Shown here piece by piece: positions 1 to 3,000 of a stretch of 11,877 nucleotides of DNA. The stretch is from a candidate division WOR-3 bacterium (GTDB lineage: Bacteria; Hydrothermota; Hydrothermia; JBDRYB01), in the NCBI GenBank assembly GCA_049969615.1, contig JBMFOM010000064.1, forward strand, positions 1 through 11,877, given 5' to 3'. Made by a program: the position numbers. The number at the start of each line of letters is the position of its first letter. The stretch's first letter is position 1.

Positions 1-3000
1 CTTAGGGTTAGTTTTTTATTTTGAGCGATTGAAGGCCCTAAGGTTAGGGTTTAGTTTTGAGCGAACAGGGTATTTGGGAGACCCCTGATAAAAGCAATAA
101 TAGCTTACTGGTTTGGGGGAGGAGCGCTTTGTCCAAAGGAACAGGGTTCTAAGAGGGGGTCCACGAAAAATCCCACCAAGATAGTATTCCATCAGGGTTC
201 TCTTTTGGCTATGATGAGGCTCCCGGATGGAGATGAAGGACACCGGGATTTTTCGGGGGTTCCATATATGTGATCCTTTCCCCGGCTGTATTCCCTTAGC
301 CCTATCCAATCTGGGGCAAGGGGTTTGGCGGTTTCAGGAGCAAAAATTGAGCTTCTTAGTCCTTAGGTTATGGCAAGGTCAATGAGCACCATTGGAACAT
401 TTGAGGAAGGGATCAGGGCCATAGCCCTTTCGCAAATGTATTTCAAGCTTGCGCCGGATAGGATACTTTCCTTATATTTTCAAGCTCAATGAAAAAAAGA
501 GTCCTGATCCTCGGAGCCGCTGGAAGGGATTTTCACAATTTTAACATGGTCTTCAGATCAAACCCTGACCACGAGGTTGTTGGCTTTACTGCAACCCAGA
601 TACCCGACATAGCCGACAGGCTTTATCCACCAGAGCTGGCAGGAGAGCTTTATCCCAAGGGAATACCGATATACAGCGAGGAGCGCCTAGAGGAGATAAT
701 CCGGGAACTGAAGGTGAACCTGGTGGTATTTGCTTACTCAGATGTCACCCACGAGCATGTCATGCACATCGCGTCAAGGGCAATGTCCGCTGGTGCGAGC
801 TTCATGCTCCTTGGCCCAGAAGACACTACCTTGGAGTCAAAGAGGCCTGTAGTCGCGGTTTGTGCTGTCAGGACTGGTTCCGGCAAGAGCCAAACAACCC
901 GCAGGGTTGCCGAAATCCTTGAGGAACACGGCAAAAAAGTTGTCGTAATAAGACACCCCATGCCCTATGGTGATCTAAGAAAGCAGATCTGCCAGCGTTT
1001 CGCGTCCTTTGATGATCTGAAGAAACACAACTGCACCATAGAGGAAATGGAGGAATATGAACCCCATATCCAGGCCGGGCGAGTGGTCTACGCCGGCGTT
1101 GATTACAGAAAGATACTCTCAGAGGCTGAGGGCGAGGCCGATGTAATCCTCTGGGATGGCGGAAATAACGATTTTCCTTTTTACAAACCGAACCTTCTGA
1201 TAGTGGTTGCTGATCCCCTGAGGCCCGGCCACGAGCGCAGGTATCATCCCGGGGAAACCGTCTTTAGGATGGCTAATGTCATACTGATAAACAAGGTTGA
1301 TTCCGCTGACCTGGATGGGATTGACGCTGTGGTAGACTCTGCCAGAGAGCTCAACCCGGGAGCCAGGATTATCCTCGGTGCGAGCCCGGTTTTCGTTGAT
1401 GATCCAACGGCAATAAGGGGCAAAAGGGTCCTCGTCATAGAGGATGGCCCCACCCTGACTCATGGGGAAATGGGCTATGGTGCGGGTTGGGTCGCGGCCA
1501 GGCTCTTTGGCGCAGGCGAAATAGTGGGCCCGGTTCCCTATGCTGTCGGCTCAATCGCCGAGGCCTACGAGAAATACCCCCATGTGAGGGATGTCTTGCC
1601 GGCCCTGGGTTATTCAGAGCACCAGCTCCTTGAGCTGGAGGCCACTATTAACGCCTCGCCTGCAGAGCTCATCCTCTCGGCCACCCCCATAGACCTCGCT
1701 AGAGTAATAAAGGTTCGCAAGCCCCTGGTCAGGGTGCGCTATGACCTGCAGGTCATAGGTAAGCCGAACCTGGAGGATGTGCTTTCGGAAAAGGGATTGA
1801 TATAAACACCAAGGCAGCACACAACTAGCGAGTTACGAGCCACCTGAGCATGGAAACCCGCGTAAAATCGTGGGTATGATCCGGAATTTTCCGAGGGAAT
1901 ACAGGTATCTCCAGATAGTTGAGAACATCTGGGACAAGAAGAGAAAGAGGGCCACCCAGAGGGCCGTTTTCTCCATGGGCAGGATAGACACCCTTGACAG
2001 GGCCAAGTATGTGAATAGGTCTCGCTGAGAACCCCCTCTGAACATGGTGCCAATTTCCCCGCCTTGATTCCTCTTAAGTCCTTACCTATCAATGACCTAC
2101 GAAAAATGAGGTGTCAAAGATGAGTAACCTAGTGCCGAAACTTTGCCCCATGATCCCTGGGATCCCTTATCAATAAACGAATTGAGAAAAATGAGGTACC
2201 AGGATTGGGCTTAGTAAATGATAAGGCATTCGTCAAGAACAACGCAAGCTTTTGATCATCGTCTCTCCGCACCATGCGACCGCCAGGGCGTCAGCAACAT
2301 GCTCTGATATGTCATCCTGGATATTGTAGAGCCTCCTGACCATGTAGAGGACGCTTTCCTTTCCCGCCCTGCCAGCGCCTGAGACCGCCTTTTTCACGGC
2401 CGTGGGGGATATTTCCTCAACGGGCACGCGCTTTTGGGTGGCAGCCAGGAGAACGACCCCGCGGGCCGCTCCCATCACAAGAGCGGTCTTTGGGTTCTTG
2501 TGATATATGACCGCCTCCATGACCAAAAGATCTGGCCTGAATTCCTCAAGCACGTCTGTTATCTTGGACTGAATCAAAAGCAGTTTCTGTCCCAGGGAAC
2601 CACGGGGTCTCAGATCTCCCGTCGCGAGGACTCTCCCCTCCTCCACCACACAGAAACCCACCGCGTTAGCACCCGGATCAACTCCCATTATCCTCAAGCC
2701 AGCGCCTCCAGCACTTCCTCTGGAATGTCAAAGTTGGCATAGACATCCTGGACATCATCCAGGTCCTCAAGGGCCTCCATGAGCTTGAGAAGGCGTTCGG
2801 CCTCGTTTCCCTCAACCCTGATGGTATTCTTCGGGACACGGGTTATCTCAGCGGAGGATACGACAAAACCAGCGGCCTCAACGGCCGCTCTGACAGCACC
2901 AAAATTCCTGACCTCGGTGGTTATCTCGTAGGTGTCAGAAAGACTCTTGAAATCCTCCGCGCCCGCATCAGCGGCAACTGTCAAAACATCCTCTTCCTCA

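Follow-up and report, generated by a model that had tools for sequence, protein, structure and literature searches.

The window analysed here, a stretch of 11,877 nucleotides from a candidate division WOR-3 bacterium of the class Hydrothermia, carries a gene that on sequence comparison is an intact arcE, orthologous to TK2200 of Thermococcus kodakarensis (Table 1). Its open reading frame contains no internal stops, and it is flanked by a dispersed repeat on one side and by ruvC-yebC on the other. The repeat gave 161 blastn matches on 85 contigs of the genome, 84 of which reach 140 bp or more, and a scan for promoters and terminators over positions 1-2300 of the window yielded signals at chance level.

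Table 1. Features annotated in the window at the arcE locus.
Feature	Position	Strand	Remarks
arcE, arginine synthetase (ATP-forming arginine deiminase) orthologue	489..1805	+	438-aa ORF; stand-alone, no arc operon
Dispersed repeat of ~190 bp, 5' of arcE	78..265	.	blastn; context only, outside the pathway

The protein has no matches among Pfam and NCBIfam profiles, and members of its family carry the database labels cyclic 2,3-DPG synthetase (cDPGS) or GTPase. The first of these identities was rejected, as the true enzyme (PDB 9sxb) matches the window protein at E = 0.19 only. The 67% identity to the Thermococcus enzyme over 433 aa reported in the survey's finding was reproduced: seven proteins of Thermococcales and one of Aciduliprofundum align with the window protein over 431-434 aa at 66.5-68% identity, P0125 of Thermococcus peptonophilus being among them (67.2% over 433 aa, E = 0). 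P0125 served as the TK2200 orthologue in this comparison, TK2200 itself not being among the sequences compared; its N- and C-terminal residues are those encoded by the TK2200 cloning primers (SI Table S5 of PMC11032458, primers read by eye). All ten of the motifs compared (the P-loop and family motifs) are common to the window protein and P0125, and the homology threshold given by the original authors in the legend of SI Fig. S10 (BLASTP E < 1e-100, length > 380 aa) is exceeded. In a 52-row tree, 14 Hydrothermia ArcE proteins from 11 families form a single clade (support 100/99), which argues that arcE belongs to the lineage and is no binning stray.

The genome in which this gene resides (G000; 2.06 Mb in 203 contigs, 98.07% complete, 0% contamination) encodes two sets of consumers of carbamoyl phosphate (CP), namely the pyrimidine pathway PyrB/C/D/E/F and the maturation proteins HypC/D/E/F of an Mvh-type [NiFe] hydrogenase. 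PyrB and PyrC lie together (C103:147-2430, the end having previously been placed at 2433) and both exceed curated cut-offs, as do PyrD (C23), PyrF (C65) and PyrR (C19), with PyrE (C66) falling slightly short (135 against a cut-off of 150). PyrB retains intact the motifs that we take to mark its CP and aspartate sites. HypF (C23), HypD and HypE are likewise over their cut-offs, HypC was recognized by motif only, and a motif search of the genome for HypA and HypB was negative; hypF, hypD and pyrD lie on one strand of C23. An Hdr-MvhDGA cluster is located on C54, and its Mvh large subunit contains two CxxC motifs. A second PF00374 match (C26) was rejected as a hydrogenase, the gene being NuoD. 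The enzymes expected alongside ArcE were found as originally described: ornithine carbamoyltransferase (OTC; C35) passes its curated cut-off, and carbamate kinase (CK; C62) passes PRK12352 (345 against 266) and is slightly under TIGR00746 (349.8 against 358.25). PyrB and OTC are the only two carbamoyltransferases of the genome. The complement thus comprises ArcE, ArcB (OTC) and ArcC (CK), with ArcA not found, and arcE, the OTC and CK genes, pyrBC and hypF are scattered over five separate contigs with no operon link.

The reported absence of CarAB, arginine deiminase (ADI) and ArgG withstood dedicated searches of this genome. For CarB only ATP-grasp matches were obtained and for CarA none (controls 14/14 for each), and neither tblastn with ten CarB loci and two CarA sequences nor local profiles run over all ORFs of at least 25 aa recovered any fragment of a carbamoyl-phosphate synthetase (CPS). 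The CPS-like matches were dismissed as unrelated ATP-grasp, MGS and glutamine amidotransferase domains, the top two being AccC and Ddl. ADI (ArcA, PF02274) was detected in none of 64 genomes of the class (control 3/14), a local profile being negative in G000 as well, and neither agmatine deiminase nor a short pentein was found in G000. A route through agmatine deiminase and putrescine transcarbamoylase was discarded, as PF04371 occurs in five of the 64 genomes and is absent both from G000 and from family f7, which is described below. G000 encodes a pyruvoyl arginine decarboxylase instead, along with two SpeE-like genes and one agmatinase-like gene.

Arginine synthesis was sought with ArgG and ArgH of the relative G013 as queries. 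ArgG, searched for in five genomes and G013, had no match in G000 at E <= 1e-4, and the ArgH query returned one weak match of 26%, so that ArgH is counted as not found. No ArgD-type gene was found either, and a weak, CK-based profile for ArgB retrieved one other amino-acid kinase, which is probably PyrH. With ArgG and the ArgD-type step not found and no ornithine or arginine synthesis evident, OTC is left without a clear anabolic use. On the side of ornithine removal, RocD, a PRK05769-type aminotransferase and ornithine cyclodeaminase were not found, and the search as a whole, whose aminomutase part had no positive control, gave no convincing ornithine sink in G000. The one class III aminotransferase at E <= 1e-20, lysine 6-transaminase-like by its counterpart in G024 and encoded by a gene containing Ns, is the sole candidate for this step. 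Among 15 scanned of 33 membrane candidates we found OPT, CstA, two SNF and one SSF transporters, which could import peptides or amino acids, and no ArcD/APC transporter.

We extended the analysis to 64 Hydrothermia genomes from 12 families, 44 of which are near-complete (>=90% complete, <=5% contaminated); these genomes are kin and not independent, and the counts are therefore descriptions and not tests. The earlier counts were reproduced for ArcE (full-length in 51 genomes, with partial genes in three), for PyrB (51) and for PyrB together with ArcE in the absence of CarB (34). PyrF is present in 51 genomes, HypF in 34 and CK in 61, including all 44 near-complete ones. For CarB, which had been put at nine genomes, our recount gave ten, consisting of eight over the cut-off, G060 with a gene split over two contigs, and G039 with a partial gene in a 7%-contaminated bin. 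The nine PyrB-bearing, CPS-less genomes said to show no ArcE remain nine if G039 is counted as CPS-less and otherwise become eight; moreover, three of them have a partial arcE and four a candidate replacement pentein, which leaves G038 (90% complete, with PyrB and HypF) as the only genome having neither. Accordingly, the 42 genomes with PyrB and without CarB divide into 34 with full ArcE, three with partial ArcE, four with a short pentein and no ArcE, and one with neither; the corresponding figures for the 31 near-complete genomes are 24, two, four (all from f7) and one. When HypF is admitted alongside PyrB, 49 CarB-less genomes result, 44 with full or partial ArcE, four with the pentein and one with neither. 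In G013, carAB lies inside an argR-argG-argH cluster. The gene directly upstream of arcE encodes a class III aminotransferase of the PRK05769 family at 14 of 30 arcE loci of the class; we assume this family to include the Thermococcus ornithine aminotransferase. G006 carries a cluster of CK, two carbamoyltransferases and a dihydropyrimidinase, suggesting that an additional source of CP may exist in some relatives. From gene content, we infer that flux through ArcE and OTC also runs across most Hydrothermia.

The sole family lacking ArcE, f7, has neither CarB nor ADI in any of its seven genomes, and keeps CK in all seven and OTC where tested. All seven encode a pentein of 270 aa (in G030 at C28:13065-13877) that is present in none of the other 57 genomes. 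Its best PDB match is AgrE (6lrf, E = 3e-32), pointing to the dihydrolase domains of AgrE and ArgZ, and its triad of Cys263, His168 and Glu121 is invariant in the seven proteins and aligns with 6lrf and 6juy. The protein thus resembles the arginine dihydrolase domain of ArgZ/AgrE, as well as DDAH, in fold and in its Cys-His-Glu triad. It differs from ArgZ/AgrE in standing alone at 270 aa, in having Asp74 (7/7) where the F-T-A-N motif of ArgZ/AgrE has Asn (Ser in PDB 6juz), and in scoring below the NF052232 cut-off (137 and 131 against 450 bits) and below every other NCBIfam cut-off (116 against 300). Asp also occupies the corresponding position, in an F-x-R-D motif, in four ADI-like proteins, and we assume that this residue marks one-step deiminases as opposed to dihydrolases. 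Gene context lends no support, since 13 metagenome loci examined by tblastn contain no OTC, CK, pyrB/C, carA/B, hypF or arcE near the pentein gene, and none of these genes was evident at the seven genome loci, judged by N-termini. A 359-aa gene 3' of CK in g10 of f7 was dropped as an ArcE replacement: it matches no family, and homologues of it were found neither in G000 nor at the CK loci of g11. Most simply, f7 would have exchanged ArcE for a small candidate arginine deiminase, and arginine would then be the CP source in this family too. Against this, the exchange would be a single evolutionary event, and the pentein could alternatively hydrolyse methylarginines or act as an arginine dihydrolase.

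Outside the class, we sampled 80 of more than 596 GTDB loci with ArcE homologues. OTC and/or CK are encoded in the flanks of 14 of these, and argS in those of 23. At ten of the 80 loci, arcE is followed directly by pyrB on the same strand, nine of the gaps to the called start measuring 60-93 bp and the tenth 271 bp, and pyrI comes next in nine; nine of these loci are from Bacteroidota and one groups with Bacteroidota in the tree. The order arcE-carA-carB was seen at one further locus. CarB had no match in 25 of the 50 genomes that we chose from the 80 for this search (completeness not given), and was unmatched in seven of the ten arcE-pyrB genomes versus two of 13 other Bacteroidota, again with completeness not given. 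PyrB exceeds its cut-off in 22 of the 25 CarB-less genomes, some of the calls outside Bacteroidota possibly representing an ATCase-like paralogue. A full-length ADI-like gene is found in 11 of the same 25 genomes, which counts against the ArcE route outside the class, and shorter penteins occur in five more. OTC passed in four and CK matched in all five of the arcE-pyrB genomes tested for them; in the cleanest cases, G064 and G069, OTC and CK are present with no CarB and no PF02274 match.

The closest known counterpart is the pathway of T. kodakarensis, formed by ArcE (TK2200), ArcB (TK0871) and ArcC (TK2158) (PMC13260591, PMC11032458). As the text of PMC13260591 has it, deletion of arcE or arcB results in pyrimidine auxotrophy and deletion of arcC has little effect; loss of arcB stops hydrogenase-dependent growth, a phenotype clear-cut for this gene only, and CPS partly rescues both the pyrimidine and the hydrogenase defects, CK being no substitute. 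The two gene sets are alike in ArcE (67%), OTC and CK, in the lack of ArcA, CPS and ArgG/ArgH, and in the presence of the pyr and Hyp systems, and the resemblance extends to the exceptions: in the few Thermococcales that possess CPS, its genes lie beside argG/argH (PMC13260591, same text), just as in G013. Unlike T. kodakarensis, our organism is a bacterium; its PyrB-PyrC and PyrR are of Bacillus type and its hydrogenase is of Mvh/Hdr type. Ornithine aminotransferases of the types expected were not found in G000, and in f7 the pentein would take the place of ArcE. Lactococcus lactis offers a bacterial parallel, in that CP derived from ADI through catabolic OTC has been proposed to be diverted to pyrimidine synthesis (PMC6586332). 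There, however, the first step is the hydrolytic ArcA of arcABC, and CPS is present, as our control matches for CarA and CarB confirmed, so that the ADI-fed route is optional; G000 has no CPS and an ATP-forming first step.

Arginine breakdown through ArcE and OTC, as the survey proposed, probably feeds CP to both pyrimidines and hydrogenase in this bacterium, its gene content matching that of T. kodakarensis. The organism would be a peptide-using anaerobe devoid of both arginine synthesis and the CPS route from bicarbonate, and would presumably import arginine or peptides. ArcE would convert arginine, ADP and Pi into citrulline, NH3 and ATP, the reaction shown for TK2200, and OTC would then carry out phosphorolysis of citrulline to ornithine and CP. 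The latter would be shared between PyrB/C/D/E/F, leading to UMP, and HypF/HypE, leading to the cyanide ligands of the MvhADG-type hydrogenase, with the surplus converted to ATP by CK; in f7, the short pentein would stand in for ArcE. Direct observation in the present genomes concerns the presence, integrity and absence of genes, and the reactions and flux in vivo are those shown in T. kodakarensis only. The role of arginine is strengthened by the distribution of the f7 pentein (7/7 versus 0/57) and by the arcE-pyrB order at ten of 80 sampled loci (of more than 596), seven of the ten lacking a CarB match. Counting against the route are the unlinked genes of G000, the lack of a convincing ornithine sink and the existence of G038. 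Citrulline phosphorolysis is unfavourable and its products must be removed (PMC6022934). A broader and more tentative proposal, which we consider possible but on balance doubtful, is that many peptide-fermenting anaerobic bacteria without CPS have ArcE and OTC as their main source of CP, a route that would be ancestral in Hydrothermia and organized as an arcE-pyrBI operon in Bacteroidales, and that the f7 replacement is an undescribed, minimal arginine deiminase of 270 aa, which arose from the ArgZ dihydrolase fold and does not act beyond citrulline.

The main competitor for the supply of PyrB and HypF is CK itself, running in reverse to make CP from carbamate and ATP and leaving ArcE and OTC to energy conservation alone. 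CK is commoner than ArcE (61/64 genomes, 44/44 near-complete ones) and the gene content is compatible with such a function; an 'anabolic CK' or CK-like CPS has been described for Pyrococcus (PMC6022934), which likewise combines CK with a CPS-less genome, and the P. furiosus enzyme could make up for the missing CPS in E. coli when 20-50 mM ammonium bicarbonate was supplied (text of PMC13260591), a level that peptide fermenters might reach. Nevertheless, we regard this explanation as unlikely: it is unsupported in vivo in T. kodakarensis, where, according to the same text, an intact CK is unable to replace arcB, CK does not adjoin pyr or hyp genes in any of the eight genomes viewed (G000, G026, G027, G030, G031, G032, G038 and G057), and G031 and G032 keep CK and OTC (the latter over its cut-off in G031) without PyrB, PyrF or HypF, which fits a catabolic role. 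OTC might instead draw mainly on imported citrulline, with ArcE being secondary or arginine-forming. ArcE is reversible, f7 has OTC and CK without ArcE, and the arcE deletion mutant of T. kodakarensis grew in hydrogenase-dependent rich medium, which its authors attribute in the text of PMC13260591 to citrulline in the medium. This possibility appears improbable given that 11 of the 12 families retain ArcE, as a single clade, that f7 has a complementary pentein, and that no dedicated citrulline source was found.

Two further explanations question the demand for CP or the absence of CPS. De novo pyrimidine flux could be small, with salvage supplying the nucleotides and CP required in traces for hydrogenase, in line with the PyrR/UPRT of G000 and with the lack of PyrB over the cut-off in 13 of the 64 genomes and of PyrF in 13, largely the same ones; the joint retention of PyrB and PyrF as open frames in most families and the intact motifs of the G000 PyrB render it very unlikely. 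That carAB exists in the organism and was missed by the 203-contig assembly is hardly credible. Many contigs do end in repeats, completeness stands at 98.07% and ten of the 64 relatives have CarB, but CarB is missing from both genomes of the genus and from 31 PyrB-bearing genomes among the 44 near-complete ones, including the near-closed G056 (4 contigs) and G057 (3 contigs), and no CPS fragments were found in G000.

The arginine-fed supply through ArcE and OTC therefore remains our preferred reading, and it would extend an archaeal pathway described in 2026 to a bacterial class, a step apparently not yet in print. PMC13260591 was said to survey Thermococcales only, which its text bears out, and WOR-3 is not named in its main text or in the supplement text of PMC13260591 and PMC11032458 (the image labels of SI Figs S2, S10 and S11 lying outside that search). 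PMC11032458 records ArcE from many bacterial phyla and calls its roles there unevaluated, and our search, mostly without subscription journals, turned up no publication dealing with bacterial CP fed by ArcE or with a linkage of arcE and pyrB. As CPS is taken to be the general entry to pyrimidines, genome-based models would call these bacteria pyrimidine auxotrophs and their hydrogenases unmaturable, and the labels 'cyclic 2,3-DPG synthase' or 'GTPase' conceal ArcE. The f7 pentein might represent an arginine deiminase of a new kind and, together with arcE-pyrBI of Bacteroidales, provides inexpensive and direct tests of the role of arginine. If the proposal is true, an entire class of uncultured bacteria would depend on arginine as an obligatory precursor of nucleotides and of hydrogenase, which would translate into a concrete medium requirement for its cultivation.

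Outside the class Hydrothermia, CarB is absent from seven of the 10 genomes in which arcE directly precedes pyrB; at one locus, arcE-carA-carB takes the place of this arrangement. In one genome with arcE-pyrBI and without CarB (G070), no ornithine carbamoyltransferase (OTC) was found above the cut-off, and the sole carbamoyltransferase found is divergent. The arginyl-tRNA synthetase gene argS adjoins arcE at 23 of 80 loci sampled from more than 596; these belong to Chloroflexota and Bacteroidota, with a single one from an archaeon. In a Symbiobacterium MAG, OTC-arcE is followed 1.9 kb downstream by another copy of arcE.

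Two pathways dependent on carbamoyl phosphate (CP) neighbour each other in the genome under study, with a repeat-containing insert separating hypF from hypD. The ~190-bp element upstream of arcE in the window has 161 matches over 85 contigs. Two further ORFs in the window, which match neither Pfam nor NCBIfam and have similar C-termini, possibly encode paralogous secreted proteins.

Within Hydrothermia, the surroundings of carB in family f4 vary between loci, and its product is possibly an ammonia-dependent CP synthetase gained later; the partial carB of G039 may be foreign. All seven ArcE-less genomes of family f7, and none of the remaining 57 Hydrothermia genomes, encode an ArgZ-like pentein in which Asp replaces the dihydrolase Asn, a candidate minimal arginine deiminase. 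In f7 genus g10, the proteins encoded after carbamate kinase (CK) match no family and share 58-60% identity. Base degradation, through the dihydropyrimidinase cluster of G006, a genome without PyrB, is a possible second source of CP.

Coordinates of features in the window, the genome under study (G000), other Hydrothermia and outside genomes
Feature	Location	Remarks
Dispersed repeats on both sides of arcE	window 78-265 and 1806-2232	
Neighbouring ORFs, 336 and 316 aa	window 9678-11635	
purL-purQ-hypF-hypD-pyrD	L147:10306-15319 (G000:C23)	single strand
carB, no carA adjoining	L309, L311, L035-L037	f4, G007-G012
Partial carB	L312 (G039:C66)	4.6-kb contig; bin 7%-contaminated
ArgZ-like pentein, 270 aa	L238:1492-2304 (-) = G030:C28:13065-13877	homologues at L241-L247
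Dihydropyrimidinase, CK, two non-PyrB carbamoyltransferases	L122:6395-11358 (G006:C1)	clustered
358-359 aa protein	L109:9035-10111, L112:438-1511, L114:860-1933	immediately 3' of CK
arcE immediately 5' of pyrB(-pyrI)	L174, L178, L188, L197, L201, L207, L210, L218, L223, L224	Bacteroidota-type genomes
arcE-carA-carB	L216	
argS beside arcE	L218:1283-3085; L160:2195-3955	examples; the 80 sampled loci are L158-L237
Second arcE	L183:7166-8608	
Carbamoyltransferase, 402 aa	L274:8009-9214 (G070:C68)
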